This document shows, in pieces, positions 27,717-47,595 of a stretch of 64,000 nucleotides of DNA. The stretch spans positions 1,301,146 through 1,365,145 of the forward strand of contig NZ_JAAWWL010000001.1 in assembly GCF_012272815.1 (NCBI RefSeq). The letters run 5' to 3'. Numbering within the stretch: position 1 is the stretch's first letter; every line of letters starts with the position of its first letter. This DNA comes from Croceivirga thetidis (lineage in GTDB: Bacteria; Bacteroidota; Bacteroidia; Flavobacteriales; Flavobacteriaceae). A program made the translations under genes and the position numbers. The notes beneath the pieces are model-generated. The model was not told the DNA's origin, searched no databases, and saw nothing but the letters and a program-made list of their open reading frames with translations.

Positions 27717-28983
27717 ATCTAAAAGTTTAGTTGAAAGGGATAGGAACCATCTTTGGCACCCTTTGACGCAACATCAAACGGCACCACCACCTTTGGCAAT
27801 TACCAAGGCAAAAGGGGCATTGATTTGGGATGAATGTGGCAATAGTTATATCGATGGTATTGGTTCTTGGTACACTGCTATGTATGGTCATGCGAATGAG
27901 CACATCATTAACGCCATGACAAATCAAATGAAGCAGCTTGATTTTGTGATGTTCAGTGGTTTTACCCATGCACCTGCCATTGAACTTTCAGAACGACTAT
28001 TGGATATTTTACCATCAAACCAATCACGAATTTTCTTTAACGATAATGGCTCCACTGCGATTGAGGCCGGAATCAAAATGGCACTACAATACCATTTTAA
28101 TCGTGGTGAAAAGCGCGATACGCTGATTGCCTTTGAAGATGGTTTCCATGGAGATACATTTGGGGCAATGAGTGCCTCTGGCTTGTCATCATACAATGGC
28201 CCATTTGAAGATTTTCTTCTTAAAGTTGAACGCATACCAGTTCCAAAAGAAGATTCCATTGCTGATGTGGTCAAGATTTTAGAGGAAATACTTGCCGCGA
28301 ATTCTTGTGCAGCGTTTGTTTTTGAACCTTTGGTTCAAGGAGCCGCAGGCATGAAATTTCATTCTGCTGAGGGGCTCGATTTACTCTTGAAAAAATGTCA
28401 AGAGAACGGTGTGATTTGTATTGCAGACGAAATCATGACTGGTTTTGGAAAAACGGGGAAGAATTTTGCGTCTGAATATTTGAATGCTGAACCCGATATC
28501 ATATGCCTAAGTAAGGCTTTGACTGCGGGTATGTTTCCGTTGAGCATCACGAGTTGTGCGGAACATTTGTTCGAAGCGTTTTTGAGTGATGAGGTTTCAA
28601 AAGGCTTTTTTCATGCACATACTTTTAGTGCCCATCCGATAGGTTGTGCGGCAGCCCTAGCCGGACTTGATTTGTTAAATTCTGAAGAGATTCTCCAAAG
28701 AAGAAGTGCTATTGCAAATGCCCATATAAATTTTGTCCATCAAGTAATTGACCATCCTAAAGTCAAAGATGCCCGAAGTAAAGGTGTTATTTTGGCAATT
28801 GATTTAGACATAACCATAAGTCGATATGGTAAAACCCGTGACGAACTGTATCAATTTTTCATGAAAAGAGGGGTAAACTTGCGTCCTTTGGGCAACGCGA
28901 TTTATGTACTGCCACCATATGTCATTACCGATTCTGAATTAAACAAAATTTATAATGCTATTCTAGAACTGCTGGAGGCTTAA
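27664..28983 (+). CDS. bioA: adenosylmethionine-8-amino-7-oxononanoate aminotransferase
   Basis: LVERDRNHLWHP matches BioA LAFDQRHIWHP, within a class-III aminotransferase fold. The true start is probably TTG at 27700 or 27709; the ORF-track start at 27664 is also TTG. Confidence 0.8.
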   Translation: MPSLQDRKLQALLEDLNKSKSLVERDRNHLWHPLTQHQTAPPPLAITKAKGALIWDECGNSYIDGIGSWYTAMYGHANEHIINAMTNQMKQLDFVMFSGFTHAPAIELSERLLDILPSNQSRIFFNDNGSTAIEAGIKMALQYHFNRGEKRDTLIAFEDGFHGDTFGAMSASGLSSYNGPFEDFLLKVERIPVPKEDSIADVVKILEEILAANSCAAFVFEPLVQGAAGMKFHSAEGLDLLLKKCQENGVICIADEIMTGFGKTGKNFASEYLNAEPDIICLSKALTAGMFPLSITSCAEHLFEAFLSDEVSKGFFHAHTFSAHPIGCAAALAGLDLLNSEEILQRRSAIANAHINFVHQVIDHPKVKDARSKGVILAIDLDITISRYGKTRDELYQFFMKRGVNLRPLGNAIYVLPPYVITDSELNKIYNAILELLEA

Positions 28984-29411
28984 AATTGGGGTTCGGAATC
29001 TTCCAAGTATTCAAATTCTTGTTCGTTGACTTCAACCCGAATTTCATGATAGACCCATTCATCACCTTCTCCAGATGCATCAATAAATAGGGTGCCTGAA
29101 TTTTTTGGCCCAGATATAGGAATCTTCATTTTAGCACTTTTAGAACCGTTTACCCAGTTGATATTGCCTTGAATCATTCCATCTTGCTCAATTGGAGACC
29201 CTAGAACTTCAGTAAGGGCTTCGTCTTTGTTTATAAGTTCAAAAGCATACTCATAGGGTTGTGATTCTTCCATAATATTGGTTACACCGAAATAAATTGA
29301 CGAAACAAGTACAATAAAACCTATAATTAAGGTTAAGCAACCGCCAAGGGGCAATACCCATTTCCAATTACTACTCCACCAGCTTTTCTGCGGAATCAAT
29401 TCGTTGTTCAT
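28980..29411 (-). CDS. Coa1-like / hypothetical single-pass membrane protein
   Basis: One TM (WKWVLPLGGCLTLIIGFIVLV) followed by a roughly 100-aa domain resembling cytochrome-oxidase-assembly Coa1 family proteins. The ATG at 29411 was chosen because the longer ORF (to 29564) overlaps the opposite-strand KAS gene. Confidence 0.35.
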   Translation of the reverse strand: MNNELIPQKSWWSSNWKWVLPLGGCLTLIIGFIVLVSSIYFGVTNIMEESQPYEYAFELINKDEALTEVLGSPIEQDGMIQGNINWVNGSKSAKMKIPISGPKNSGTLFIDASGEGDEWVYHEIRVEVNEQEFEYLEDSEPQF

Positions 29412-29464
29412 TCTTTTACTTTTTTCAATAAGATGAAGGTAATAACTTTTACTTTTGGCCTGCC

Positions 29465-30619
29465 GTGAAGACACCAATATCCATAACAGCAATATCTTCT
29501 TTATCAGCTTTAGGAGCTGACGAGACCATAATTGAGCTGGGCTACTCAAATTCAAAACATTCACTGACTTTAAAAGAAATTGGAGGTCAAAAAGTTTGGG
29601 TTGGTCATTTGACCAAAAAAGAAAAACAAGCTATTACAACGCTTCGTAATTCTGATTCAAAATACAAGAACCTTGATGATTCGGTTTTATTCGCCATTTA
29701 TTCGTCCAGAAAAGCAATCGAAAAAGCTGGTTGGAAAAGTGGAGATGATTTTGGTGTAAATATTGGCTCATCAAGAGGTGCAACTTCATTATTTGAAGAA
29801 TACCATAGATCTTATTTAAAGGAAGGAAAAACGGCAACCTTGACTTCGCCTACCACTACCCTTGGTAACATCTCTTCTTGGGTTGCTCATGACCTGCAAT
29901 CTAAAGGGCCTGTTATATCACATTCCATCACATGTTCAACCGCACTTCATTCATTGTTAAATGGAATTGCTTGGTTACGAGGTGGAATGGCTGACAAATT
30001 TTTAGTAGGGGGAAGTGAAGCACCGCTGACTTCATTCACCTTGGCCCAAATGAAGGCTCTAAAAATCTATAGTAGCTCAAATGAAGAATATCCTTGTCAG
30101 GCATTGGAACTGGAAAAGAAAAAAAATACAATGGTTTTGGGTGAGGGTGCAGCAATTGCTTGCCTCGAGAAGGGTGTTTCGGATAAAGCCATTGCACGGA
30201 TAGTAGGAATTGGATATGCTACCGAAATCCTTGAGCATAATGTTTCCATTTCTTCCGATGCTAAATGCTTTCAAGATGCCATGAAAATGGCCTTAGGAGA
30301 ATTTTCACCAGACGAAATTGATGCTATAGTTATGCATGCTCCAGGCACTATAAAGGGTGATGTATCTGAATATCAAGCTATTAAAAAGGTATTTTGTAAC
30401 AAAACCCCTTTTTTGACGACAAATAAATGGAAAGTAGGTCACACCTTCGGAGCTTCTGGAATGCTCAGCATAGAAATGGCCATCCTAATGCTAACCCACC
30501 AGAGGCCCATACCCGTTCCGTTTATAGCATACAAAAGTCTTCCTGACTCCTTTGACAAAATAATGGTCAATGCAGTTGGCTTTGGAGGTAATGCCGTATC
30601 GATTCTACTTTCATTATGA
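29465..30619 (+). CDS. beta-ketoacyl-ACP synthase I/II-like condensing enzyme
   Basis: Cys-His-His triad context: ITCSTALHS (Cys), VMHAPGT (His), KVGHTFGASG (His). 384 aa. GTG start at 29465. Confidence 0.7.
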   Translation: MKTPISITAISSLSALGADETIIELGYSNSKHSLTLKEIGGQKVWVGHLTKKEKQAITTLRNSDSKYKNLDDSVLFAIYSSRKAIEKAGWKSGDDFGVNIGSSRGATSLFEEYHRSYLKEGKTATLTSPTTTLGNISSWVAHDLQSKGPVISHSITCSTALHSLLNGIAWLRGGMADKFLVGGSEAPLTSFTLAQMKALKIYSSSNEEYPCQALELEKKKNTMVLGEGAAIACLEKGVSDKAIARIVGIGYATEILEHNVSISSDAKCFQDAMKMALGEFSPDEIDAIVMHAPGTIKGDVSEYQAIKKVFCNKTPFLTTNKWKVGHTFGASGMLSIEMAILMLTHQRPIPVPFIAYKSLPDSFDKIMVNAVGFGGNAVSILLSL

Positions 30620-30697
30620 CCCTTAATAAGATATTTGAATATCCATTCAAAGTCTTATCTTAAATTATTATTTCAACCACTTTAAAATTGTAAAGCC

Positions 30698-31273
30698 ATG
30701 GAAACTTGGTTCGAAGCTTTGACGCTTTTTCAGAAAATTTATTGGATTGTAGCCATCGTAGGCTCTGCTATTCTATTGGTACTTATCGCCATGACCTTAA
30801 TTGGTGGTGATGTTGACGACATGGGAGATGTTGATGCTGATATTGATGGGGATACAGGAATAGGTTTTCAGTTTTTATCGTTCAAAAACTTGATGGGTTT
30901 TTTGACCATTTTTGGTTGGTCCGGTATTTCATGTATCGATAACGGACTTTCGACTGGTGCAACCATTGCAATATCCGTTTTTTGCGGATTGCTTATGATG
31001 CTAACGATGGCTTCATTGTTCTACTATTTGGCAAAATTGCAAAGTAGCGGTACGCTTAAGCTAAAAAATGCAAAAGACCAAATAGGAGAGGTATACCTCA
31101 CGGTGGGTGCCAAGCGTAGTAGAATCGGTAAGGTCAGTGTTAATGTTCAAGGTACGCTTCGTGAACTTCAAGCATTGACCGATGAAGACCAAGATTTGGT
31201 TCAAGGTAACGTGGTGAAAGTACATGATGTCACAGATACAGGAATTTTAATAGTCAATCTTTTAAATAAATAG
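30698..31273 (+). CDS. NfeD-family membrane protein (flotillin partner)
   Basis: N-terminal TM helices plus a C-terminal OB-fold-like region (VGAKRSRIGKVSVNVQGTLRELQA). Directly upstream of a flotillin gene. Confidence 0.65.
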   Translation: METWFEALTLFQKIYWIVAIVGSAILLVLIAMTLIGGDVDDMGDVDADIDGDTGIGFQFLSFKNLMGFLTIFGWSGISCIDNGLSTGATIAISVFCGLLMMLTMASLFYYLAKLQSSGTLKLKNAKDQIGEVYLTVGAKRSRIGKVSVNVQGTLRELQALTDEDQDLVQGNVVKVHDVTDTGILIVNLLNK

Positions 31274-31277
31274 AAAT

Positions 31278-32723
31278 ATGCTAATACTACCATTACAATT
31301 GGGCGGAGGCGGCACTTTGCTTGCCATTGGCTTCGCCATCCTCTTTTTCTTTATAATTATTATATCCTTCATTAGAAGGTACAAACGCTGTCCCTCAGAC
31401 CGTATTCTTGTGGTCTATGGAAAGGTAGGTACTGGTAATTCTGCCAAGTGTATTCATGGTGGAGCCGCCTTTGTTTGGCCCGTTATCCAAGACTATGAGT
31501 ATTTGGATTTGACCCCTATTTCAATAGAGGTCGATTTGCAGAACGCCCTTAGTAAACAGAATATACGGGTTAACGTACCTTCTCGTTTTACCATAGGTAT
31601 TTCAACCGAACCCGGTGTAATGCAGAACGCGGCTGAGCGCTTATTGGGCCTTGGTCTTCCAGAGGTTCAAGATTTGGCCAAGGAAATCATTTTCGGTCAG
31701 TTACGTTTGGTTGTAGCATCTATGGATATTGAAGAAATCAATGCCGATAGAGATAAGTTTTTGACAAATATTTCTGCAAGTGTTGAGTCTGAATTGAAGA
31801 AGGTTGGTCTCAAGTTAATTAACGTAAACATCACTGATATTGTTGATGAATCTGGTTATATCGAAGCTTTGGGTAAGGAAGCTGCCGCTCATGCAATCAA
31901 TGCCGCACGTAAATCAGTTGCTGAAAAAAATAGGGATGGTTCTATTGGTGAGGCAAATGCACTACAAGATGAGCGTACCCAGGTAGCAGCCGCAAATGCA
32001 AAAGCAGTCGAAGGTGAGAACATTGCCAAAATAGATGTTGCCAATTCAGATTCACTGCGAAGACAGCGAGAGGCTGAGGCTGAGCGAACCGCCATCGCTG
32101 CTGAGAAGGTTCAGTCTGCTAAAGCTTTGGAAGAGTCCTATGCAGCTGAAAGAGATGCTGAAGTTGCAAGGGCAGAACGTGAGCGAAGCTCTCAATTGGC
32201 TGATATTGTTGTCCCTGCTGAGATAGACAAACAGAAAGTTGAAATTGAAGCCGAAGCTGAAGCTGAAATGATTCGTAGAAGGGCCAAAGGTGAGGCTGAC
32301 GCAATTCTGTTTAAAGCTCAGGCAGAAGCTAAAGGTATTTTTGAAGTATTGACCAAGCAGGCCGAAGGTTTGGATAAAATAGTTCAAGCAGCCGGTGACA
32401 ATCCAAAAGATGCAGTTTTGTTATTAATTGCTGATAAATTACCTGAGTTGGTCGAAAAGCAGGCTGAGGCTATTAAGAATATCAAAATTGATAAGGTTAC
32501 GGTTTGGGATTCTGGTCAGAAGTCTGAAGATGGAAAGAACTCGACAGCCAACTTTATTTCAGGTATGTACAAGTCGGTACCACCCTTACAGGAAATGTTC
32601 AATATGGCAGGTATGCAATTACCTGAGTATTTAAAGGGTAAGGACATTACCGTTGATGATGGTAAAGGAGCAAAACCAGCTCAGAAATCACAGAAAAAAA
32701 CCGATTCAAAATCGGAAGAATAA
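31278..32723 (+). CDS. flotillin / SPFH (band-7) family protein
   Basis: N-terminal TM, SPFH domain, then a long Ala/Glu-rich coiled coil (EAEAERTAIAAEKVQSAKALEE...). Confidence 0.8.
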   Translation: MLILPLQLGGGGTLLAIGFAILFFFIIIISFIRRYKRCPSDRILVVYGKVGTGNSAKCIHGGAAFVWPVIQDYEYLDLTPISIEVDLQNALSKQNIRVNVPSRFTIGISTEPGVMQNAAERLLGLGLPEVQDLAKEIIFGQLRLVVASMDIEEINADRDKFLTNISASVESELKKVGLKLINVNITDIVDESGYIEALGKEAAAHAINAARKSVAEKNRDGSIGEANALQDERTQVAAANAKAVEGENIAKIDVANSDSLRRQREAEAERTAIAAEKVQSAKALEESYAAERDAEVARAERERSSQLADIVVPAEIDKQKVEIEAEAEAEMIRRRAKGEADAILFKAQAEAKGIFEVLTKQAEGLDKIVQAAGDNPKDAVLLLIADKLPELVEKQAEAIKNIKIDKVTVWDSGQKSEDGKNSTANFISGMYKSVPPLQEMFNMAGMQLPEYLKGKDITVDDGKGAKPAQKSQKKTDSKSEE

Positions 32724-32738
32724 AGAGCTTATTTTGAA

Positions 32739-32767
32739 AGACGGCGGATTTTTCCGCCGTTTTTTTA
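32739..32767. terminator. bidirectional terminator between flotillin (+) and gpsA (-)
   Basis: ACGGCGGA (32741-32748), TTTTT loop, CCGCCGT (32754-32760), then TTTTTT. On the minus strand it follows the gpsA stop. Confidence 0.75.
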
Positions 32768-33766
32768 ACCAGGTTCTGACTCTGAACCGCTTTCTAATTT
32801 TAAAAGCCCTCTGAATGCATCATGAACCGTATTGTCTTCATAAAGCACTTTATAAACCTCTTCTGAAATGGGCATATGAACGTTGTAGTCTTGTGCCAAT
32901 TCCATAACAACTTTAGCAGTTTTCACCCCTTCGGCAACTTCTGACATTTCTTCTATTATCTCATCCAGTTTTTTCCCTTTTCCCAATTGAAAGCCTACAT
33001 GTCGGTTTCGACTTTTGGTACTACTACAGGTCGCAACCAAATCACCCATGCCGGCAAGACCAGCGAAGGTTCTTCGCCGACCACCCATTGCCGTGCCCAA
33101 TCTTGTAAGCTCTGAAAGTCCACGTGTAATAAGAGCTGCTCGAGTATTATCTCCAGCGTTTGCACCATCACCCATTCCTGTAGCAATGGCCATAATGTTC
33201 TTTAACGCACCACCGAGTTCACATCCAATAACATCATTATTCGTGTAAACCCGAAATAGACCTGAATTGAAAACGCCTTGTAGTTTTTTGCCAATCACTT
33301 CATCAACCATGGCAATCACGGCTGCAGCCGCTTGACCATTGTGAATTTCCTTGGCTAGATTTGGACCGGTTAGAACGCCTGTTGGATGCCCAGGTAGGAT
33401 TTCTTCGATAACTTCGGTCATCCTTTTTTTGGTACCCATTTCTAATCCCTTTGAAAGGCTTACAATTGGTATCCAGGGTCTAATATGGGCTTTTGCTGTT
33501 TCCAATACTGTTCTGAAATTTTGTGATGGAATGCCCATTACCAAAACATCAGAATTTTTAACGGTTTCTTCTATTGAAGCTGAGGCTTTAAGATTTTTGT
33601 TAAGGAGTGCTCCCGGAAGGTATTTTGAATTGGTGCGATGTTCGTTGATTTCATTAACGGTATTTTCGTTTCGTGCCCAAATAGTAGTATTTGCATTCCG
33701 GGCAGTTAAGGAGGCAACTGTGGTTCCCCAAGATCCTCCTCCCAACAATCCAACATTTAATGGCAT
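32765..33766 (-). CDS. gpsA: NAD(P)H-dependent glycerol-3-phosphate dehydrogenase
   Basis: VGLLGGGSWGTT Rossmann motif, GpsA-like length. The ORF-track start at 33781 is TTG; the ATG at 33766 (MPLNVGLLGGGSWG) is the likely start. Confidence 0.85.
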   Translation of the reverse strand: MPLNVGLLGGGSWGTTVASLTARNANTTIWARNENTVNEINEHRTNSKYLPGALLNKNLKASASIEETVKNSDVLVMGIPSQNFRTVLETAKAHIRPWIPIVSLSKGLEMGTKKRMTEVIEEILPGHPTGVLTGPNLAKEIHNGQAAAAVIAMVDEVIGKKLQGVFNSGLFRVYTNNDVIGCELGGALKNIMAIATGMGDGANAGDNTRAALITRGLSELTRLGTAMGGRRRTFAGLAGMGDLVATCSSTKSRNRHVGFQLGKGKKLDEIIEEMSEVAEGVKTAKVVMELAQDYNVHMPISEEVYKVLYEDNTVHDAFRGLLKLESGSESEPG

Positions 33767-33808
33767 AGGCAATGGTTTCAAAGTGGATTGCTTGAGAAGG
33801 CAATCCTA

Positions 33809-37063: not shown

Positions 37064-38254
37064 CTAATTTAAGAAAAACAAACTTCTCTTTTTCTTGTTC
37101 CAGTAAAAAGGATAGAGAAAGCGTTCTATGAAAGTTGTAGTGTCTTCAACGGTCCTACCTTCAATGTTGGCTTGCAAGGCATTTGCCGTAATCAATAGCA
37201 CACTGACATTTGCGCCTAATCCTGAATGACTACCATAAACTTCAATGTTGGCAATATCTTTTCTGAAACTTTCTGCTTCCATACAATGTTTCCAAGGCAA
37301 AAGACCGTCGGTTTTTGTATAAATACAGGTTATAGGAACATTGGGTATTGGGTCCAATTCTTCTAAAAAACGCTTGTTTCGCTCTTTTAATGATTTACCC
37401 CTAAAGAATTCAAGAACACCATTCACAGGGGTCTTCATGTCCATAACTCCCCAAACAGGTGAACCAATGGTCACAATTTGCTCAACCATATCAGGATGTC
37501 GGTTGGCCATAATTTTAGCGAAAAGACCACCGCCACTCCAACCCACTATATTGACTTTTTGCCCACGGGTACGAAAAATATCTTCTAGTTTTTCTTCTAG
37601 CCTTGGTATATAATGAGATTTGATCAGGTTGACACCTTGATCCCATTTGTAGGTTTTGAAACCCAAAGAAGTCAAATAGCGACGCACAAATGAGGTTGAA
37701 TAATCATCTCCTAAATAGGGCGGAATCAAAAGAACTGGCCTGCCATCTCCTTTAATTCGTTTTGGTATAAAGGGATAAAATGCATAAATCGATGTCCATT
37801 CTACCAAAGACCTTCCTTCCAATAGCATATTGAAAAGTGGTGGCTTGGGAATCTTTAAATTGATTTGAGCAATTTGACGCTTGAAACTTTCCAGAACATT
37901 TTTGGTGAGTTCAGTTGTTTTCGGATCACTTTTTTCGACAAGATCCTCAACGACATGTTCAAGTATGTTTATCAAGGTATAGTACTCACGGCTCGGCCCA
38001 AGTTCGTCGCAGATTCGTATACATTTTTGAAATGAGGAATTAATATCACTTTCATTATCGAGAGTTAACTTCTTGATAAGAGGAAGTAAATCTTCAGAAT
38101 CTTGATGGTCTTTAAAGTGTTTTGAAAATATTCGTTTCAAGTCTCGAACCGCAAGTTTGTTCTTTTTGCCCAAATGGGTAATGAACTCGATAAAAGCTTC
38201 GTATAAATGCAAATAGTCGTTCATGGTTTGTGGGGGATATGCTTGTTTAGCCAT
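37064..38254 (-). CDS. lipase-like alpha/beta-hydrolase with N-terminal helical domain
   Basis: The C-terminal half carries a nucleophile elbow VNIVGWSGGGLF, a candidate Asp (TKTDGLLPW) and a candidate His (GSHSGLG). An alternative ATG at 38224 would give an ATGA overlap with the upstream gene stop. Confidence 0.55.
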   Translation of the reverse strand: MAKQAYPPQTMNDYLHLYEAFIEFITHLGKKNKLAVRDLKRIFSKHFKDHQDSEDLLPLIKKLTLDNESDINSSFQKCIRICDELGPSREYYTLINILEHVVEDLVEKSDPKTTELTKNVLESFKRQIAQINLKIPKPPLFNMLLEGRSLVEWTSIYAFYPFIPKRIKGDGRPVLLIPPYLGDDYSTSFVRRYLTSLGFKTYKWDQGVNLIKSHYIPRLEEKLEDIFRTRGQKVNIVGWSGGGLFAKIMANRHPDMVEQIVTIGSPVWGVMDMKTPVNGVLEFFRGKSLKERNKRFLEELDPIPNVPITCIYTKTDGLLPWKHCMEAESFRKDIANIEVYGSHSGLGANVSVLLITANALQANIEGRTVEDTTTFIERFLYPFYWNKKKRSLFFLN

Positions 38255-39162
38255 GTAATGATATCTTCTTCGACCTCTTCGCTGTTTATTTCGTTAAGCA
38301 TTTCATGTCGGCCTCCTTTGTAGAGATTGAAAGTCAGTTCATTGTTGCCATTTTCTCTATAATTTTTGGCAACTTTAGTGACCCCCTTGCCCATTTCTCC
38401 AACGGGATCCTCATCTCCTGAAAATATCAGTATAGGGAGGTCATCAGGGGTACTTATAAAGGCTTCAGGTTTATTCAATTGTCGCGAATTGGTCAATATG
38501 TCTGCAAAAACGCCAATTGAAAAATTTTCTATTCGATAAGGGTCGGCTTCAAAAATATCAACTGCAGTTTCATCACTACTTATCCAATCAAGTTTGGTTC
38601 TATTGGGTTTGAATTTTTTATTGAATTCATCAAAAAAGAATGCCCTTAAGGTTTCGTTGCTTCGTTCCCTACCTCTGAAAGCACTAACAAGTTTTGTGCT
38701 TGCCAGCCCAAAATGACCGAGTCCTTTTATAAAATTTGCGGTTCCTGATAAAATAAGAGCGTCAATATCCGAGCCGTGTTCTAGTACATATTTACGACTT
38801 AGCAAAGATCCCATGCTATGCCCAAATAGAATAAACTTCGTGTTAGGGTGTTCCTGGCACATCAATGTAGTCAAAGAATGCATATCTGCAACAGCATCCC
38901 CAAAATAATCGTCGCCATCATAATAACCGAACAATCGTTTTATTTCGGCAGTTTTTCCATGGGCGCGATGGTCGTTCGCATACACAGTAAAACCTTCTTT
39001 TTGTAAGCGATTTGCTATGGTTTCATACCTGCCCGCATGTTCACCTATACCATGTGCAATTTGAATAACACCTCTAAGAACAGTCCCTTCTGCTGCCTCC
39101 CATTTATAGTAGCAGATGACTTCCCCATCCTTGGCGGTAAATGTATTTGTTTTGTAAGGCAT
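38221..39162 (-). CDS. alpha/beta hydrolase, lysophospholipase / monoacylglycerol-lipase family
   Basis: HGIGEHAGRY and GHSMGS motifs typical of the Hydrolase_4 / lysophospholipase L2 / MGL family. 313 aa. ATG confirmed. Confidence 0.7.
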   Translation of the reverse strand: MPYKTNTFTAKDGEVICYYKWEAAEGTVLRGVIQIAHGIGEHAGRYETIANRLQKEGFTVYANDHRAHGKTAEIKRLFGYYDGDDYFGDAVADMHSLTTLMCQEHPNTKFILFGHSMGSLLSRKYVLEHGSDIDALILSGTANFIKGLGHFGLASTKLVSAFRGRERSNETLRAFFFDEFNKKFKPNRTKLDWISSDETAVDIFEADPYRIENFSIGVFADILTNSRQLNKPEAFISTPDDLPILIFSGDEDPVGEMGKGVTKVAKNYRENGNNELTFNLYKGGRHEMLNEINSEEVEEDIITWLNKHIPHKP

Positions 39163-39164
39163 CT

Positions 39165-41003
39165 TTATCTGCTTAAAAAGGCTTTGATGAGGTTACTAAA
39201 CTTTCGCTTATCGGCAACAGTTCCTGAAAGTTTAAGGCGCTGTTGAATTTTAAGCTCGTCGAAAAGAAATTTTTTCTTGTAAAGTGCGTAGAGATTTTCA
39301 TCCTCAATTTCCATGAGCATTTTTGGATCTAGTGCTGTTGTCTTTTTAATTGAAATAGGTTCTTTAGTCAAGTCAATTTCCCAACATTCGCTACTTTCTC
39401 CCATATCAACCCCAATATGATATAGGCCTTTATATTTTTTTACGAGAGCGGTTTCTTTCTTGAGGTATCTTTTTAATGCGTTGAAAAATACGGTGCTCTC
39501 ACTCTTTTTCTTAGCCTCTTTTGCAGGTGTTTTTTTCTTATCCCTTGCTAAGATTAATTTTTCCAATTCATTTGCTGACTCTCGAATGTATCTGGAGAAC
39601 AAATAGGCATCTGGCATTGTCTTCGCATCAGATGTCGGTGTAATACTTATATTGCCGTTATAGCTAAAAGCCGCGATAATCAGTCCAAAACCATTGACCA
39701 CCGGAGTCAACGGAAACATAGCTACCACTTTATGGCCGTTGAGGTACAACGTATTTTTTGGTCCAGGCACATTGGTGATGGTGACATTAAAAGGTGGCCT
39801 GTGTAGGTCTTTAATATTGTACTTGCTGTAGATACGTGCCGCTAAATTGGCCAAGCCGAATGGAACCGCATCTGCCATTTTTACCAAGGTTTTTGCACCC
39901 ATAGTTTTATGCCTTGCTTTACCAAGCATTGTCTGTTCTTGTATATATTCCAGACGTTCCAATGGTTCTTCAATATGCGTGGCCAGCTGAATCATCATAT
40001 TGGCTATTTGGTTGTTATGCGAAGTATCGTTTTCGGCGCGTATTGAAATCGGAACATTAGCGACCAATGGCTGCATTGGTAATTTTTCTTTTTCAAGTAG
40101 ATATCTGCGCAAAGCTCCGGCACAAATGGCAAGCACAACATCATTAATACTACCACCAGCCAGTTTTCGTAGACCATTCACCCTATCAAAAGACAGAATT
40201 GCGGTGCCCCAAGTTCTTTTTGGCGAAATATTTCCATTAAAAATGGTATTTGGCACAGGATATCTTGCCGTTGCAAATTCCTTTTGGATACTTAGCGTTT
40301 TAGAAGCTCTTGTTTTGACAAGCGCAATTGCGGTGTTGGCAACGGATTTGGGTAGTTTTAGGGGGTTTTTAAAAAAACCGTAGCTACTTTTTAGTAGCAA
40401 ACTCAAGTCGTCAGGCAGCGGATCTGGTTGAAATTTTTTGATTTTTGATTTGTCGATGGGCTTTACTTTATCATCTTTCTCAAACAAAGTTCCTAAAAGA
40501 CCTACGCCTGAACTTCCATCAATCATTACATGATGAACTTTACTTACAATGGCAACAGAGCCTTTGGGCACTTGTGGGATTTCGTCAATACCCTCAATAA
40601 AATGAATTGACCAAAGGGGTCTTCTCAAATCGAGGGGAGCACTGAAAATTCGTGAGGTTGTTCTACGCAAAGACTCCCAATTTGAGGGATCTGCCAACTT
40701 CATGCGGTTGAGATGAAGATCTAATTCAAAATTTGGATCATCAACCCAATATGGATAATCCAAATCCATGGGAACACGCATTAAACGCTGTCTAAATTTT
40801 GGCATTAAATGTAGCTTCGAAGCAACAATTTTTTTGAAGTCCTTGAAATTAAGTGAACCTTCAACAACCAATAGCGTGGCAATATGCATCGGACTTGTGG
40901 GAGACTCGGCATAAAGAAAGGTTGCATCGGTACCTGAGACTTGTTCGTATTTGCCTTCCAACACCTCTTGTGCAATATCTTTAAAATCAATTTTTGATGC
41001 CAT
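39165..41003 (-). CDS. wax ester synthase / acyl-CoA:diacylglycerol acyltransferase (WS/DGAT) fused to C-terminal SCP2-like lipid-binding domain
   Basis: HHVMIDGSSG (HHxxxDG catalytic motif), the ATFLYAES...PMHIATLL N-terminal block, PKFRQRL, PYWVDD, LDLRRPLWSIHFIEG. The last roughly 130 aa (GLYHIGVDMGESSECWEIDLTKEP...KLSG) match an SCP2 sterol-carrier fold pattern. 612 aa versus about 460 aa for a typical WS/DGAT. Confidence 0.85.
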   Translation of the reverse strand: MASKIDFKDIAQEVLEGKYEQVSGTDATFLYAESPTSPMHIATLLVVEGSLNFKDFKKIVASKLHLMPKFRQRLMRVPMDLDYPYWVDDPNFELDLHLNRMKLADPSNWESLRRTTSRIFSAPLDLRRPLWSIHFIEGIDEIPQVPKGSVAIVSKVHHVMIDGSSGVGLLGTLFEKDDKVKPIDKSKIKKFQPDPLPDDLSLLLKSSYGFFKNPLKLPKSVANTAIALVKTRASKTLSIQKEFATARYPVPNTIFNGNISPKRTWGTAILSFDRVNGLRKLAGGSINDVVLAICAGALRRYLLEKEKLPMQPLVANVPISIRAENDTSHNNQIANMMIQLATHIEEPLERLEYIQEQTMLGKARHKTMGAKTLVKMADAVPFGLANLAARIYSKYNIKDLHRPPFNVTITNVPGPKNTLYLNGHKVVAMFPLTPVVNGFGLIIAAFSYNGNISITPTSDAKTMPDAYLFSRYIRESANELEKLILARDKKKTPAKEAKKKSESTVFFNALKRYLKKETALVKKYKGLYHIGVDMGESSECWEIDLTKEPISIKKTTALDPKMLMEIEDENLYALYKKKFLFDELKIQQRLKLSGTVADKRKFSNLIKAFLSR

Positions 41004-41015
41004 TGGTCAGTTGTT

Positions 41016-42353
41016 TTATGCTACTCGCGAACGGTTCTTTTTTTGTAAGCTAGTATAATTATTGATGCCTATATTTTCTGCTTTGAGTTCAAACATTAAA
41101 CTAAATAGGCCAAAAAATGTTCTATTTAGATAAATAATGTGTCTTGAACCCCTATTGGCGTTCATTTTTCTAACATTTGAAGACTTCATGTAATGCTCAC
41201 CTAAAGCTGAAATTCTTTCGAATAATGATTGGTCTGAAAAGTCGAAAGTTTCGCTTTGAAAAGGTTGTGTAAAACATTCAAGTACCTCGTAGAACATTTT
41301 GGTAAAAAACTCAAGTTCTTCTTCAGAATCTTCAGTCTTCAACACTTCAAGGGCCAAAAGATTTTTTCGAAAACTCTTTTCGTTATTTATAACATCTGCT
41401 TTAAAAAGTTCGAAATACGGCGTATAAAATTCATTTGGAATTTCTTTCATACAACCAAAATCAAGTGCAATCACCTCGTTTTTATCCGAAACAAGAAAAT
41501 TTCCAGGGTGAGGATCTGCATGAACTTTGCGCAATTCATGCAATTGGTACATGTAAAAATCCCAAAGTGTTTGGCCAACTTTGTTCGAAGCCTTTTGGTC
41601 AGTATTTGATTTAATAAATTCAGAAAGATGCTTACCATTCATCCAATCCATTGTAATAATGTCAGAAGAAGAGTATTCAGGGTAGTACTTAGGAAATCTC
41701 AAATTTGGAATATGTTGACATGAACTTGCGACCTCTTGGCTTTGTTTTAGCTCCAAGACATAATCCGTTTCTTCTACAAGCTTGTTTTCAACTTCCTTGA
41801 AATATTTCTCTGAATGTTCTCCCTTGATGTTGAACATTTTCATAGCAACAGGTTTCACAATTGCTAAATCGGATTGAATACTTTCGGCTACACCAGGGTA
41901 TTGGATTTTTACGGCAAGGGTCTTACCATTTTTTTCAGCTTGATGTACCTGTCCAATACTTGCAGCATTAATTGCTTCATTACCAAATTTGTCGAATAAT
42001 TGGTTTGGATACTTACCGAATGATTTTCTGAAGGTTTTGAGAACCAAAGGAGCAGAAAGCGGAGGAACTGAAAATTGGGAAAGGGAAAATTTCTCTACAA
42101 AAGCCTTGGGCATAATGTTCTTTTCCATGCTCATCATTTGTGCCATTTTCAGGGCACTTCCCTTCAATGTTTTTAAACTATCATAGATATCGTTCGCGTT
42201 GTTTTCATCAAGACGTTCCTTAGCCTTCTCTTCAGAATTGACCATCTTGTCGCCATAATATTTCAAATAATTTACACCAACTTTAGCACCCGTTTTTACT
42301 AGTTTGGAAGTGCGTTGCAGCTTTGAAATCGGTATTTTTTTCGATGTCTTCAT
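41016..42353 (-). CDS. ABC1/UbiB (AarF) atypical protein kinase family protein
   Basis: AASIGQVHQAEKNGKTLAVKIQYPGV and ADPHPGNF are ABC1-kinase signatures. 445 aa. ATGA overlap with the upstream TetR-like gene. Confidence 0.8.
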   Translation of the reverse strand: MKTSKKIPISKLQRTSKLVKTGAKVGVNYLKYYGDKMVNSEEKAKERLDENNANDIYDSLKTLKGSALKMAQMMSMEKNIMPKAFVEKFSLSQFSVPPLSAPLVLKTFRKSFGKYPNQLFDKFGNEAINAASIGQVHQAEKNGKTLAVKIQYPGVAESIQSDLAIVKPVAMKMFNIKGEHSEKYFKEVENKLVEETDYVLELKQSQEVASSCQHIPNLRFPKYYPEYSSSDIITMDWMNGKHLSEFIKSNTDQKASNKVGQTLWDFYMYQLHELRKVHADPHPGNFLVSDKNEVIALDFGCMKEIPNEFYTPYFELFKADVINNEKSFRKNLLALEVLKTEDSEEELEFFTKMFYEVLECFTQPFQSETFDFSDQSLFERISALGEHYMKSSNVRKMNANRGSRHIIYLNRTFFGLFSLMFELKAENIGINNYTSLQKKNRSRVA

Positions 42354-43012
42354 TCGTTTTCTTTCGACTTTATTTTTTCGGCATACAAAAATTTACCGAG
42401 GTCAATGATATTATGTAATGATTTGGTATTCAATAGCTCTAAAGCAGTATTTACTGACTTTTCAATGAAAATATCTGTTTTTTCGCACCGTTGTGAATCG
42501 TCCGACATCCAGAATTTGATGGTCAATAAGAACTGGACCCAAAAGCCTTCTTTAATTGACTTTTTTTGAAATGATTCCAGACTACTGGTAAGATTGAGCG
42601 GTTCCATCGCCAATGAATCGACGAATCCATCAAAACTTTGCTTTAATTCGCTGAATAGCGATATTGTACCTAAGCTTAAACCATAATCTTTTAAGGTGAT
42701 TAAGATGAATTCTCGATTTAAGGTCAGGTTTTCAAAAAAAGTATAATACAGGCTGAGCAGTTTGTCCTTTTTGTCAAAGGAAGGATATTCAGAACTTTCA
42801 GCAAGGGTAGCAATCGAAACATCAAAAAGCGTTCTGAAAATCGCCTTGTCCAATTCTTCAAAATCCTTATAATGTTCATGAAAAGAATTGGCATCAAAAT
42901 CATAGTGTTCACCCAAATTTTCTATTGAATCGGGTTTGCCCTGCAGTCTTACCACTGCATCCATATAAAAATCTATAAGATCTTCTTCTGTTATTTTCTG
43001 TTGATTTGCCAA
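42350..43012 (-). CDS. TetR/AcrR-like transcriptional regulator (divergent HTH)
   Basis: TEEDLIDFYMDAVVRLQGKPDSIENLGEHYDFDANSFHEHYKDFEEL aligns position-by-position with the TetR consensus HTH (TRERILEAALELFAERGY..TSMRDIAEAAGVSKGALYHHFPSKEAL). TTG start at 43012. Confidence 0.5.
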   Translation of the reverse strand: MANQQKITEEDLIDFYMDAVVRLQGKPDSIENLGEHYDFDANSFHEHYKDFEELDKAIFRTLFDVSIATLAESSEYPSFDKKDKLLSLYYTFFENLTLNREFILITLKDYGLSLGTISLFSELKQSFDGFVDSLAMEPLNLTSSLESFQKKSIKEGFWVQFLLTIKFWMSDDSQRCEKTDIFIEKSVNTALELLNTKSLHNIIDLGKFLYAEKIKSKENE

Positions 43013-43108: not shown

Positions 43109-43145
43109 AAAAAAACCAGTTAGTCTCATTGAGATTAACTGGTTT
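43109..43145 (-). terminator. rho-independent terminator of the phasin-like operon (minus strand)
   Basis: AACCAGTTAGTCTCA / TGAGATTAACTGGTT near-perfect inverted repeat (43116-43145). On the minus strand it is followed by TTTTTTT (plus-strand A-run 43109-43115). It sits just downstream of the 43177 stop. Confidence 0.7.
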
Positions 43146-43176: not shown

Positions 43177-43464
43177 CTAAGCTACCAGTTTTTTGAATCT
43201 CTTCTGACCCTCTTTGAAATCACCTTTGATTTCGTTTAAGATATCAAAAACCAATTCTTGTTGTTTGGCCGCCAATTTCAATCCTCCTTTTACAGCTTTG
43301 TCAGCAACACCTTGCCACTGTTCTGTAATTTCAATTGATGTGGATACAAACTCTTCGGTTTTTGTTAGGGCAACTTGGTTTGCGTTAAGTGCCATATCCT
43401 TGGTCTTCTTTGCATAGTTTGCAAAAATTCCCTTCTTATTTTTATTTACTTTCTTATTTCCCAT
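43177..43464 (-). CDS. phasin-like small amphipathic protein (paralog 1)
   Basis: 95 aa, predicted all-helical and Lys-rich, with the KQQELVFDILNEIK motif shared with the two neighbouring paralogs. Confidence 0.5.
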   Translation of the reverse strand: MGNKKVNKNKKGIFANYAKKTKDMALNANQVALTKTEEFVSTSIEITEQWQGVADKAVKGGLKLAAKQQELVFDILNEIKGDFKEGQKRFKKLVA

Positions 43465-43502
43465 TACGGTTTGAATTAAGATTAGTCCCTATTTGAACTG
43501 AA

Positions 43503-44381
43503 TTATTTTTTGTTGTCAGCCAACCAAGCCGCTATAGCTTCAACTCCTGCCTCAGCTCCTAGTTCTGCTTGTTTTTTCAAGTCAGTAACGCTGGTATTTT
43601 TAAAAGTTGAACCCGCTTCATCAAGAATCGACTTGATTTTAGTTTCAGTTGCCTGTGCCAATTGCGCAAAAGTTTCGATACCATTCTCCTTGAAAATACG
43701 CTCAAGTTTAGGACCAACACCCTTAATAGCTTTAAGGTCATCTTTAATAACGGCCTTAACAGTGCTCTCAACCTTCGCCGCTTTTTGCTTTACCTCGGCT
43801 ACTTTCACAGAAGCTTTTTTAGAGGTTTTTGTAGCTTTAGCAGTAACTGTTTTCTTTGTTTTCCCAACATTTTTCTTTGTTTGCTTCAAGGCATCATCAA
43901 CCAAGTCTTCACCCTTGTCAATTACCTTTTTAGCCTGCTTAAGAGCGTCTTCCTTGACCTCATTAAATTTGGCTACGCCCTGATTTTTTAGGTTTTCAGC
44001 AGTTTTCTCAACCTTTTGAACGATTGGGTTTTCTATAACTTTCTCTTTAATGGTTTCAGAAACTTCCAATACCTTTTTACCTACAGGTGTTTTAGATACA
44101 TATTCAAAGGCACGCTCAATGGTGTCCTCATCATAACCAACCAAATCCATGGTCTTTTCTTTTCCTGTGTTGAACTGATTTTTTACTGTTGCTGCAGTTT
44201 CAAAAACCAAATCCATTTGTCTTTTACGTAATGGCTCGGTTTTTTTAACCATTTTCTTGGTCAATTCTTGCCATTTCTCACCATGCTCTATGGTCGTGTT
44301 AATTGTTGCCATTGTCACATTTATCAATGACTTATTCAAGCTTTCGCTTTTTTTAGTTCTGTTTTTTGTTGCTGTTGCCAT
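43503..44381 (-). CDS. phasin-like protein with Lys/Ala-rich linker and C-terminal helix-hairpin-helix domain (paralog 2)
   Basis: N-terminus shares KRQMDLVFETAATVK with the paralogs. The middle has KTKKTVTAKATKTSKKASVKVAEVKQKAAK (histone-H1-like). The C-terminus has DDLKAIKGVGPKLERIFKENGIETFAQLAQAT (HhH). Confidence 0.5.
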   Translation of the reverse strand: MATATKNRTKKSESLNKSLINVTMATINTTIEHGEKWQELTKKMVKKTEPLRKRQMDLVFETAATVKNQFNTGKEKTMDLVGYDEDTIERAFEYVSKTPVGKKVLEVSETIKEKVIENPIVQKVEKTAENLKNQGVAKFNEVKEDALKQAKKVIDKGEDLVDDALKQTKKNVGKTKKTVTAKATKTSKKASVKVAEVKQKAAKVESTVKAVIKDDLKAIKGVGPKLERIFKENGIETFAQLAQATETKIKSILDEAGSTFKNTSVTDLKKQAELGAEAGVEAIAAWLADNKK

Positions 44382-44425
44382 GATATATTTTGTTTAAATA
44401 CTGTTGTTCTTAATTAATTATGATG

Positions 44426-44461
44426 CAAATCTAATTTTGAGTAGTTACAAATGAGTTGCAA
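44426..44461 (-). promoter_or_regulatory. candidate SARP-box promoter: TTGCAAC-N4-TTGTAAC direct repeat (minus strand 44461-44443) plus TAGATTTG -7 box (44433-44426)
   Basis: Reverse complement of 44443-44461 is TTGCAACTCATTTGTAACT. Fourteen nt after its second TTG lies TAGATTTG, which matches the Bacteroidota TAnnTTTG -7 element. This is 45 nt upstream of the ATG at 44381. Confidence 0.5.
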
Positions 44462-44467
44462 TCGAAA

Positions 44468-44719
44468 CTAGTTCTTGACAATTCTCTTTTTGATACCGTA
44501 GAGGGCATCAAAAACAAGTTCTTGTTGGGCAGCAGTGATGTCCAATCCTTTTTTCACAACTTTTGAGGTCAAATCCAAAGATTTATAACCTAAGCCAATA
44601 GAAACATCGAATGCTTTTTCTGTTGTGGAAAGTGCAAAGTCGTTTGCTTTGTTTGCCAATCCAAGAGCGTTATCCGCTACTTTTTCTACAATGTTCTTTT
44701 TCGTTTTTTTAGTTGCCAT
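44468..44719 (-). CDS. phasin-like small amphipathic protein (paralog 3)
   Basis: 83 aa, with AAQQELVFDALYGIKK near the C-terminus matching paralog 1. ATG confirmed. Confidence 0.5.
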   Translation of the reverse strand: MATKKTKKNIVEKVADNALGLANKANDFALSTTEKAFDVSIGLGYKSLDLTSKVVKKGLDITAAQQELVFDALYGIKKRIVKN

Positions 44720-44756: not shown

Positions 44757-44792
44757 CAAACATAGAATCCCATAGTTACAAATGAGTTACAA
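44757..44792 (-). promoter_or_regulatory. candidate SARP-box promoter: TTGTAAC-N4-TTGTAAC direct repeat (minus strand 44792-44774) plus TATGTTTG -7 box (44764-44757)
   Basis: Reverse complement of 44774-44792 is TTGTAACTCATTTGTAACT. The repeat-to-TAnnTTTG spacing is identical to the 44426-44461 element. It is 38 nt upstream of the ATG at 44719. Confidence 0.5.
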
Positions 44793-45685: not shown

Positions 45686-46237
45686 CTATTTGGTCGTAGA
45701 TGTTTTAGCCTTGGTAGTTCTTGAAGGCTTTTTGGTATTTGCTTGGTTCATAGCATCAACCTTTTTAGTGAGTTCCGCAACCGATTTTGTGAGTTTTGAA
45801 AGACTATCTTGCATTATCTTGAAATCTGATTTAGAAGCGTTACGCCATTGGTCGATAGGTACTTTTTCCATAAGTTCCTCACCATATTCGCTTAATTGCT
45901 CCTGCAAATTGGCAACCTGTTTTCTTGGGTCTTTTAAAGTCTCTTTGAGCATTTTTGGCCCTGTGGCTGCAACTGATTTAAAAAGCGAGAAACTCTTGGT
46001 CAAAATGTTTTCCTGTTCTTCAGAAGTACGGTCGGTCGTAGCTTCCATTGTTAAATCGGCCAAATGTTGTTGTATAAAATCTACGGCCTGTTTAAAATCA
46101 GAGAAGTTTAAATCTTCACCCCCTTGAACGTGTGAAACGTTACCACGCCATTGCACTTCAGATTCACCATTTTCGTCATAGATTTTTTGGGTGAACCGAA
46201 CCATAAATGAGGCGGTCTGTGCTGCTTTTTTTGCCAT
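45686..46237 (-). CDS. hypothetical helical protein (first gene of the minus-strand block)
   Basis: 183 aa, no recognisable domain, predicted helical with a Lys/Thr-rich tail. ATG confirmed. Lies 12 bp upstream of the SARP gene. Confidence 0.4.
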   Translation of the reverse strand: MAKKAAQTASFMVRFTQKIYDENGESEVQWRGNVSHVQGGEDLNFSDFKQAVDFIQQHLADLTMEATTDRTSEEQENILTKSFSLFKSVAATGPKMLKETLKDPRKQVANLQEQLSEYGEELMEKVPIDQWRNASKSDFKIMQDSLSKLTKSVAELTKKVDAMNQANTKKPSRTTKAKTSTTK

Positions 46238-46464: not shown

Positions 46465-47595
46465 TTGCGCACTATGGCCGAGACGAGACACGACTGGACA
46501 AAAGAAGAAATTCTTGCTATTTATAACAAACCCCTGATGGAATTGCTTTACGAAGCAGCAACAGTTCATCGGGAATACCATGACCCAAATACGGTTCAAG
46601 TCTCAACCTTACTCTCAATCAAGACGGGAGGTTGTCCTGAAGACTGCGGTTATTGTCCGCAAGCTGCGCGTTACCATACGGATATTGAAGGCAACGACTT
46701 GATGTCAGTTCAACAGGTTAAGGCCCAAGCATTGCGTGCAAAATCCGCTGGTAGTTCAAGGGTTTGTATGGGTGCAGCCTGGAGAAACGTCAAGGATGGT
46801 CCTGAATTTGACCAAGTTCTAGAGATGGTGCGAACCATCAATAAGTTGGATATGGAGGTTTGCTGTACTTTGGGTATGGTGACAGAGAACCAGGCAAAAC
46901 GACTAGCTGAAGCAGGTTTATACGCTTACAACCACAATCTTGACACTTCTGAGGAATATTATAAAGAAGTTATTTCTACTCGTGGCTATGAAGATCGTCT
47001 TCAAACCATTGAAAATGTTCGTAAAACCAACGTAACTGTATGTAGTGGTGGAATAATTGGTATGGGTGAATCTAGTGAGGACAGAGCTGGTATGCTCGTG
47101 GCTTTATCAACTTTGAATCCGCAACCAGAATCCGTTCCAATAAATGCTTTGGTAGCTGTTGAAGGTACGCCGATGGAAGAACAAAAACCAGTTGAGATTT
47201 GGGAAATGATTCGTATGGTTGCTACGACACGAATTGTAATGCCAAAGACCCAAGTAAGGCTTTCCGCTGGTAGGACTGAAATGAGCAGGGAAGGACAGGC
47301 AATGTGTTTCTTTGCCGGGGCCAATTCCATTTTTGCAGGTGATAAGTTATTGACCACCCCAAATCCGGATGTTAATCAGGATATGGAAATGTTCAAAATG
47401 CTAGGATTGAATCCTCAAAAAGCTTTTGTAAAGGCACCACAACCTAATACCGTGGAAGCTGAAGATTCTCAATTTCAATCTTTGGGTGAAAAACCAAGAT
47501 GGTCAAGGCCAGGACATTCTATAGGACAAAATGAGGCTGCTACCGAAAAAGGAAAAGCCAAGAAATTAATCGAAACCCCCATCGAGAATACATGA
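46465..47595 (+). CDS. bioB: biotin synthase with C-terminal low-complexity extension
   Basis: [10 protein letters not shown] radical-SAM cluster motif. [34 protein letters not shown] aligns with the BioB N-terminus, with a likely ATG at 46474. About 45 extra C-terminal residues. Confidence 0.85.

Follow-up and report, generated by a model that had tools for sequence, protein, structure and literature searches.

The main finding to emerge from a 64,000-nucleotide stretch of the genome of Croceivirga thetidis (Flavobacteriaceae), hereafter the window, is a set of three tandem genes, here called A, B and C, whose products are paralogous amphipathic-helix proteins encoded beside a complete putative pathway for triacylglycerol synthesis. 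By analogy with granule proteins of other bacteria, we propose that A and C coat triacylglycerol bodies, that B tethers these bodies to DNA, and that a neighbouring regulator of the SARP family switches the genes on, and we give this reading a probability of roughly 60%. A, B and C would thus be functional analogues of phasins, of Rhodococcus TadA and MLDS, and of perilipins, while constituting a separate, uncatalogued protein family. Within the proposal, the role at the droplet surface is more secure than the role in DNA tethering.

The sequence-only reading had described three minus-strand open reading frames (ORFs) of 83, 292 and 95 amino acids as paralogues, and both the frames and their kinship were confirmed. 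BLASTP aligned C with A at E=4e-12 (41% identity across 73 amino acids), C with B at E=4e-8 and A with B at E=5e-5, and the small-protein hidden Markov model (HMM) matched the N-termini of 72 B-type proteins with E values of 1e-19 to 1e-23. A, B and C are true paralogues, their similarity lying well beyond chance, and have in common a domain of approximately 75 residues. The motifs that had been listed as shared by the three products are present, but two of them appear to have been exchanged if the lists were given in matching order, as AAQQELVFDALYGIK lies in A and KRQMDLVFETAATVK in B. The 95-residue and 292-residue products are identical to WP_168551677 and WP_168551678, respectively.

To place the three genes in a wider context, we used 20 loci with a full-length B gene, comprising 16 GTDB species representatives and four others, from about ten genera or lineages that include Flagellimonas, Dokdonia, Winogradskyella, Lacinutrix, Polaribacter, Patiriisocius, Psychroserpens, Aggregatimonas and a Roseivirgaceae metagenome-assembled genome (MAG). 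This set came from a scan of one genome per GTDB species with a profile of the B alignment, followed by tblastn with twelve window proteins. A-type, B-type and C-type proteins fall into separate orthologue groups across genera, which indicates that the triplication is old. Gene A was detected by tblastn in 18 of the 20 loci, its orthologues being 82-90 amino acids long. The exact 83-residue form of A was not found in a collection of 15 billion proteins, in which five neighbouring proteins were all present; the gene may be annotated from another start codon in the deposited genome or may have been left unannotated, and the MATKK... start common to all A orthologues supports the 83-residue form.

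The proteins had also been described as rich in Lys, Ala and Glu, helical and amphipathic. Lys (17-19%) and Ala (10-12%) are indeed abundant in all three, whereas Glu ranges from 3.6 to 9.9% and the 83-residue protein cannot be called Glu-rich. All are basic (pI 9.6-9.8), with grand average of hydropathy (GRAVY) values of -0.15 to -0.64, and large aliphatic or aromatic residues account for about 29% of A. The claims of helicity and amphipathicity held up by three separate routes, namely structure prediction, hydrophobic moments compared with shuffled sequences, and periodicity across the family. AlphaFold2, supplied with family alignments, modelled C as a single helix from residue 8 to residue 94, at a low predicted local distance difference test (pLDDT) score of 64, and B as all-helical at a pLDDT of 53, also low, with its C-terminal domain alone reaching 72-78; neither model showed tertiary packing. 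Extended and unpacked helices of low pLDDT are as expected of helices that bind surfaces. The mean hydrophobic moments of A, B and C exceed those of shuffled sequences with z = 2.5 to 5.6, and over positions 20-95 the family-averaged hydrophobicity profile is most strongly periodic at exactly 100 degrees per residue, a power reached by 0 of 1000 shuffles. On the strength of this periodicity, the shared domain is a long continuous helix with one coherent hydrophobic stripe. No transmembrane segment was predicted in A, B or C, and Pfam and NCBIfam scans of the three revealed no enzymatic domain. With a long helix that has a conserved hydrophobic face, no transmembrane segment and no globular fold, the proteins have the hallmarks of the generic class of amphipathic lipid-surface proteins.

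The 292-residue protein had been regarded simply as another coat paralogue. It does share the family domain, but it is more than that, as the domain is followed by a Lys-rich stretch and a helix-hairpin-helix (HhH) module that had gone unnoticed (Table 1). Residues 214-252 of B match HHH_5 with 31.5 bits against a cut-off of 27, and the same match is made by 56 of 72 B homologues; among the top 120 B-family matches, 119 have an HhH domain, with 21-123 Lys-rich residues beside it. A second, degenerate copy of the family domain in the central part of B was considered and rejected, all second matches having E>0.05. In one Saprospiraceae locus, B is minimal and consists of the family domain, a Lys-rich linker and the HhH domain. 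In Lacinutrix, Oceanihabitans and one Psychroserpens genome, B lacks the HhH domain and has a greatly expanded Lys/Ala/Thr-rich, histone-like tail. Four HhH-less orthologues were located (L003 10371-11309; L013 9953-10813; L014 3615-4466; L012 10001-10609), three of which have the much-expanded tail, and two Psychroserpens genomes (L002 and L003) differ precisely in having the HhH domain or the expanded tail. B homologues in the JGI data are often labelled 'predicted flap endonuclease-1-like 5' DNA nuclease' or 'DUF4332', names that probably stem from the HhH module only and mislead for the family.

A protein that joins a storage granule to DNA is not without precedent. PhaH of Caulobacter, PhaF of Pseudomonas and PhaM of Cupriavidus bind polyhydroxybutyrate (PHB) granules through their N-termini and DNA, non-specifically, through their C-termini, the DNA-binding part being an HhH domain in PhaH and a histone-like tail in PhaF and PhaM (PMC13052382, a 2025 review). 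B shares the layout of these granule-to-nucleoid tethers, and the replacement of its HhH domain by an expanded histone-like tail in some genera, which lends the tether role some indirect support, suggests that the B family uses both of the known tether solutions. The closest architectural counterpart is the helix-hairpin-helix phasin PhaH of Caulobacter crescentus (Salinas et al., 2023, cited in PMC13052382): like PhaH, B has at its C-terminus an HhH domain of the DDLKxIxGIGPKLE type, joined by a basic linker to an amphipathic N-terminal domain, which by analogy would face the granule surface. It differs from PhaH in that its N-terminal domain comes from another family, its partner genes would make triacylglycerol rather than PHB, and its host belongs to the Bacteroidota rather than the Alphaproteobacteria. 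Like PhaF/PhaI and PhaM, B combines an amphipathic N-terminal region with a Lys/Ala-rich histone-like tail, and the variants of Lacinutrix, Oceanihabitans and Psychroserpens resemble PhaF in having the expanded Lys/Ala/Thr-rich tail only; B has no detectable homology to these proteins, however, and the locus contains no polyhydroxyalkanoate (PHA) genes. In Rhodococcus, where MLDS and TadA are small and abundant proteins on triacylglycerol droplets, MLDS joins the droplets to genomic DNA (bioRxiv 10.1101/2020.05.18.103093), which is the role proposed here for B on the same kind of lipid body, albeit in a different phylum. Argued in this way from analogy, the tether role of B is an attractive suggestion to which we give slightly less than an even chance.

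The sequence-only reading had noted that the three genes adjoin genes of lipid synthesis, and domain scans of the neighbours agree. Downstream of the trio, a tightly packed run of seven genes on the same strand extends from 43012 to 32765. It includes a wax ester synthase/diacylglycerol acyltransferase (WS/DGAT) with an SCP2 domain, predicted from its sequence to catalyse the final step to triacylglycerol or wax ester, two candidate lipases, and a fusion of glycerol-3-phosphate acyltransferase (GPAT), HAD phosphatase and lysophosphatidate acyltransferase (LPAAT) domains, which we infer to convert glycerol-3-phosphate to diacylglycerol. Together with GpsA, the run appears to cover every step from dihydroxyacetone phosphate (DHAP) to triacylglycerol, plus the lipases. 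Since GpsA and the GPAT-HAD-LPAAT fusion are present and no fatty acyl-CoA reductase was seen among the scanned window ORFs of at least 200 amino acids between 21.5 and 62 kb, triacylglycerol is more likely than wax ester as the predicted product. The GPAT part of the fusion is PlsB-like, and the fusion is kept in all loci including the Saprospiraceae one (47% identity).

As far as each contig reaches, the same partner genes accompany the full-length B gene in all 20 loci. WS/DGAT is missing from two loci only, both on truncated contigs (5 kb and 12 kb), and is encoded in the other 18. The linkage is maintained through three gene orders: the Croceivirga type, a Polaribacter type in which the enzyme block has moved upstream, and that of locus L088, in which GPAT and GpsA are inverted. 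In a Saprospiraceae MAG, too, the family genes lie beside the GPAT-HAD-LPAAT fusion, GpsA and lipases.

The control regions of the trio are also conserved. An exact 16-nucleotide repeat, AACTCATTTGTAACTA, lies upstream of both A and B, within the pattern TGYAACT-N4-TGYAACT, and direct inspection revealed Bacteroidetes promoter elements; across genera this resolves into a composite element in which TGYAACY-N4-TGYAACY is followed after 9 nt by TAnnTTTG. With two sites expected per locus, one before A and one before B, 39 of 40 carry the element, and both strands of the 20 loci, 382 kb in all, contain no further copy. The 9-nt gap is retained in 38 of the 39, and the heptamer box precedes A in 19 of 20 loci. 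The window contains two heptamer boxes against 0.04 expected. TAnnTTTG is the -7 promoter consensus of Bacteroidetes, and the classic SARP operator consists of direct heptamers that are one helical turn apart and abut the core promoter. A gene for a protein of the SARP family is present in 20 of 20 loci; its product in the window has a clear BTAD domain and a weak winged-helix Trans_reg_C match (14.3 bits against a cut-off of 26.2) and is named 'AfsR/SARP family' by NCBI. With heptamers of 11-nt period at a core promoter beside a BTAD regulator gene, both sites have the predicted form of a SARP promoter, and by analogy the heptamer repeats are a candidate binding site of the adjacent SARP protein. 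The likeness to Streptomyces SARP promoters lies in the BTAD regulator and in direct heptamers spaced by 11 nt just upstream of the -10-equivalent element; the differences are the Bacteroidota host, a TAnnTTTG -7 box rather than a sigma-70 -10 box, and predicted targets that are lipid-body genes rather than antibiotic clusters. Matches of the SARP protein to TAL effectors in the PDB were dismissed as artefacts of repeat summing, no stretch passing alone. In the Saprospiraceae locus L032, three tandem TGTAACT heptamers lie upstream of the B gene, and no SARP gene was found within that locus.

Gene C begins 38 nt downstream of B without a promoter box of its own and is therefore probably co-transcribed with B. 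The region beyond C folds into an intrinsic terminator, AAACCAGTTAATCTCAATGAGACTAACTGG followed by T7, and a hairpin with a T-run likewise follows C in L001, L002 and L004, the loci of three other genera examined. An automated terminator scan missed the terminator of C, whose outer loop exceeds 8 nt, and a sigma-70 scan was uninformative (8 promoter-like sites against 8.9 expected). Given boxes at A and B, none at C and a terminator after C, the trio consists of two transcription units with SARP boxes, A alone and B-C, both set apart from the enzyme operon.

Table 1. Coordinates of the A/B/C genes, the regions of B, the control elements and the neighbouring genes in the window (residue numbers refer to protein B)
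Feature	Position	Strand	Remarks
Gene A, 83 aa	44468..44719	-	Family domain alone; basic amphipathic-helix protein
Gene B, 292 aa	43503..44381	-	N-terminal family domain and further regions
B: family domain	residues ~1-90	-	Matched by small-protein HMM
B: proline-punctuated amphipathic helices	residues ~95-165		Two segments of ~20-22 residues (P99, N118-P119)
B: Lys/Ala/Thr-rich histone-like stretch	residues ~166-212		15 K+R vs 2 D+E
B: HhH domain and conserved W..QA tail	residues 213-292		
Gene C, 95 aa	43177..43464	-	Basic amphipathic-helix protein; one long predicted helix
Direct heptamer repeat TGTAACT-CATT-TGTAACT	44774..44791	-	Upstream of A; 11-nt period
-7 box TAtgTTTG	44757..44764	-	9 nt past heptamer repeat, 37 nt before A ATG
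Direct heptamer repeat TGCAACT-CATT-TGTAACT	44443..44460	-	Upstream of B
-7 box TAgaTTTG	44426..44433	-	9 nt past B heptamer repeat, 44 nt before B ATG
Intrinsic terminator	43109..43145	-	Past C; 86-nt region -18.7 kcal/mol, z = -3.0
SARP/BTAD-family transcriptional regulator, 268 aa	44867..45673	-	BTAD 58.7 bits vs cut-off 22.1
Conserved 183-aa protein	45686..46237	-	Lys-rich tail, no family match; 12 nt upstream of SARP gene
TetR_C_23-domain protein	42350..43012	-	First gene of downstream operon; no detectable helix-turn-helix
ABC1/UbiB-family atypical kinase	41016..42353	-	Overlaps TetR_C_23 gene by 4 nt
WS/DGAT acyltransferase with C-terminal SCP2 lipid-binding domain	39165..41003	-	TIGR02946, 396 bits
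Two alpha/beta hydrolases, candidate lipases	37064..39162	-	Hydrolase_4/monoacylglycerol-lipase-like; PGAP1/Palm_thioest-like
GPAT-HAD-LPAAT fusion, 1080 aa	33809..37051	-	Acyltransferase + GPAT_C, HAD phosphatase, second acyltransferase (LPAAT-like)
GpsA, NAD-dependent glycerol-3-phosphate dehydrogenase	32765..33781	-	

When 1.84 billion representative proteins were searched exhaustively with an HMM, only 351 proved to be members of the family. A Pfam scan of 145 of these representatives found no consistent Pfam family, A and C matched no Pfam or NCBIfam family, and the shared domain is uncatalogued in Pfam; against PDB sequences, the small-domain profile gave only chance-level matches (E>0.4). 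Our literature searches found no paper on the A, B and C proteins or on phasin-like proteins in Flavobacteriaceae. Four members (P0246, P0276, P0283 and P0290) are proteins of 230-290 amino acids without an HhH domain, in which 2-4 tandem amphipathic repeats of about 35 residues, with a consensus like ETATEVM.DVKE....E.....TKLAKEA, precede the canonical domain.

The description of the proteins as phasin-like needs to be divided: as a functional analogy it is supported, but membership of the phasin family is not, as no window protein reaches a Pfam phasin threshold. For PF05597, the 95-residue and 83-residue proteins gave no match and the 292-residue protein scored 16.8 bits against a gathering score of 28.8. 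Among B homologues, 38 of 72 match PF05597, all below threshold (best 27.2 bits), and the matches fall on residues 38-98 in some and 119-173 in others, which is what generic amphipathic similarity yields. For PF09361 (Phasin_2), no window protein matches at E<=1, and 4 of 145 family representatives match weakly (best E=2.3e-4). The 95-residue protein is called 'Phasin family protein' in UniRef, on a basis that could not be traced, and hypothetical in NCBI. B has a PhaH-type architecture, with an N-terminal amphipathic family domain and a C-terminal HhH domain, and yet it scores 33.3 bits (E=5.3e-8) against the NCBIfam PhaH model NF045508, below the equivalog cut-off of 250 bits; the match spans profile positions 80-209, is driven by the Lys-rich and HhH parts, and is no better than matches to L21 and NuoE models that bear the same HhH module.

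Other lipid-surface families show likeness of a similarly general kind. PF01442 (Apolipoprotein A1/A4/E) is matched below threshold by the window's own B and by 39 of 72 B homologues, with a best E value of 4e-8 and scores of 17-28 bits against a gathering score of 90 bits, and a PDB search gave a weak match to ApoA-IV (E=0.0047). Apolipoproteins and perilipins resemble the family in their long amphipathic helices, in the repeat expansion of some members and in the proline-punctuated segments of B; however, instead of tandem 11/22-mer apolipoprotein repeats B shows just two such segments of about 20 residues, and the likeness is one of composition and periodicity, homology not being demonstrated. 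Remote homology as an explanation of the PF05597 and apolipoprotein matches was rejected, given the shifting position of the PF05597 matches and the negative comparison with PhaF. Pfam scans of 217 members of the A/B/C family showed no family in common with the TadA/HBHA-like proteins or MLDS of Rhodococcus and Mycobacterium.

Taken together with the gene linkage, these features suggest how the system might work. A and C, which are a 75-residue amphipathic helix and little else, would rest on the surface of the droplet and keep it stable, and perhaps control droplet size and the access of the co-encoded lipases. B would be anchored to the droplet through its family domain, while its Lys-rich stretch and HhH domain would bind DNA non-specifically and so tether droplets to the nucleoid in the manner of PhaH, PhaF, PhaM and MLDS. 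The SARP protein would bind TGYAACY-N4-TGYAACY at the A and B-C promoters, turning the coat genes on during storage-lipid synthesis.

Several observations weigh against this proposal. The peak hydrophobic moments of A, B and C are merely moderately above those of shuffled sequences, and amphipathic periodicity is likewise seen in coiled coils and helical bundles. Foldseek searches of the PDB returned nothing at E<0.1 for the B model and no matches for that of the 95-residue protein; as the models of B and C are low-confidence extended helices, this fold comparison is uninformative. When the three family alignments were compared by hhalign with PhaF N-termini, using an alignment rebuilt from 34 Pseudomonas PF05597 proteins, the probabilities were 0.15%, 3.4% and 0.9%, and at the level of sequence none of the established families of granule proteins showed detectable homology. 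Nor is it guaranteed that B binds DNA, as HhH domains also occur on complex I and reaction-centre subunits in solved structures; indeed, the C-terminal module of B is homologous to the C-terminus of the alphaproteobacterial complex I 41-kDa subunit (9wqv_a, E=1.7e-11) and, in the PDB search, to that of reaction-centre protein O. In locus L087 the family genes adjoin a gene for an ArsA/Get3-like ATPase and a lipase gene, with no triacylglycerol synthesis genes within 10 kb. Finally, neutral-lipid accumulation in Bacteroidota was described as unexplored in a 2023 survey, which noted only a WS/DGAT-SCP2 gene and a neighbouring acyltransferase/hydrolase gene (PMC10351704); the triacylglycerol bodies themselves are presumed here from the genes.

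It is worth considering whether the three proteins instead serve the lipid enzymes as scaffolding, activating or gatekeeping subunits, present in stoichiometric amounts rather than as a bulk coat, that would activate the WS/DGAT or the GPAT fusion, as PhaM does PhaC, or gate the two lipases in the manner of perilipin. Such subunits would show the same tight linkage to enzymes and lipases; a lipase-like hydrolase is the one partner that all lineages share, including L087 and L032, where there is no WS/DGAT nearby, and PhaM combines tethering with activation of the synthase. The promoters and terminator of the trio, however, are separate from those of the enzyme operon, and three paralogues with repeat-expanded variants fit the covering of a surface better. 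We regard this explanation as unlikely by itself, noting that it is compatible with a coat and the two are not mutually exclusive. Less likely again is that the proteins are protective ones of the LEA/hydrophilin, PspA or YtxH kind, co-regulated with storage-lipid synthesis under starvation and acting on the cytoplasmic membrane or on macromolecules rather than on droplets. They are basic, helical, Lys-rich and small, as this would have it, sporadic weak matches to YtxH, DUF883 and ApoLp-III occur in the family, and PspA in Rhodococcus is known both as a lipid-droplet-associated and as a stress protein. The GRAVY values and the content of large aliphatic and aromatic residues in A are nevertheless not hydrophilin-like, the linkage in 20 of 20 loci is to triacylglycerol genes and not to stress genes, and a protective function leaves the tether architecture of B unexplained.

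The histone-like stretch and HhH domain of B, and the position of the trio between a SARP regulator and a TetR-fold protein, could alternatively mark B as a nucleoid-associated or transcriptional regulator of the lipid operon, with A and C as its partner or antagonist peptides. In known cases, though, HhH domains and Lys-rich tails bind DNA non-specifically; A and C have no DNA-binding feature, the 75-residue amphipathic helix is conserved in all three proteins, and repeat-expanded members are atypical of regulators, all of which makes this account improbable. Least probable by far, and in our view barely worth entertaining, is that A, B and C are true phasins of PHA granules. The UniRef label of the 95-residue protein and the sub-threshold PF05597 and PF09361 matches would agree with it, but the hhalign comparison with PhaF and the linkage to triacylglycerol genes do not; a PHA synthase domain was absent from the window and from the neighbourhoods annotated in 8 loci, and a genomic survey of the Flavobacteriaceae found two PhaC genes only (PMC9676036).

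The wider surroundings of the trio contain further genes of potential interest. The TetR_C_23 protein, which has a weak COQ9-family match (E=0.036), and the ABC1 kinase recall both the COQ9-COQ8 pair of ubiquinone synthesis and the ABC1 kinases of plastoglobules; the pair is kept in most loci and is absent from L088 and L089. The 183-residue protein, encoded 12 nt upstream of the SARP gene in 20 of 20 loci, has a conserved N-terminus (ASFMVRFNQKIY..GE..VQWRGKVSHVQGGE) and the motif DPRKQV...VPIDQWRNASKSDF; it may act as a co-regulator or as a further droplet protein. Biotin-related genes flank the lipid locus (27664-32723 and 46465-47595): BioB is encoded at one end, and genes for a class III aminotransferase and a ketoacyl-synthase-like protein lie at the other. 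An SPFH/Band-7 (flotillin-like) gene lies beside the locus at 31278-32723. Because the flanks differ in other genera, the biotin-related and SPFH genes are probably incidental. Loci of the Saprospiraceae type (L032 9848-13661 and L087 9309-13263) encode a short B, a family member of about 155-167 residues and a helical protein of about 122 residues, after which come genes for a lipase and for an ArsA/Get3-like ATPase that includes an HSP20-like domain, and have an extracytoplasmic function (ECF) sigma/FecR pair or an AraC regulator in place of the SARP gene.

Much is already known of storage-lipid bodies, and of the proteins at their surface, in Actinobacteria and Proteobacteria. The A/B/C proteins would add a new sequence family that fills a role of a known kind, in a phylum from which it is undescribed. 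It is tempting to speculate that the locus amounts to a self-contained droplet organelle module of marine Flavobacteriia and related Bacteroidota, and that genera such as Polaribacter and Dokdonia store triacylglycerol, although we hold this extension tentatively, at a little short of even odds. Such a module would comprise a DHAP-to-triacylglycerol pathway and lipases in one operon, an ABC1 kinase, perhaps comparable to those of plastoglobules, paired with a COQ9-like lipid binder of the TetR fold, the coat family represented by A and C, a tether, B, that derives from the coat and ends in either an HhH domain or a histone-like tail, and a SARP switch acting on the heptamer box. As the gene set is compact and highly conserved, with candidate coats, a candidate tether, a regulator and a defined operator, the question can be tested directly. 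The coat family and the GPAT-HAD-LPAAT fusion are also possible parts for the engineering of triacylglycerol production.

The genera with this gene set dominate the turnover of polysaccharides in the ocean, Polaribacter and Dokdonia being abundant heterotrophs associated with blooms. If the proposal is true, these bloom-associated marine heterotrophs would hold a reservoir of triacylglycerol carbon that is not currently attributed to them. B would then be a fourth independent granule-to-nucleoid tether, alongside PhaF, PhaM and PhaH, suggesting that the tethering of storage bodies to DNA is a general bacterial solution.

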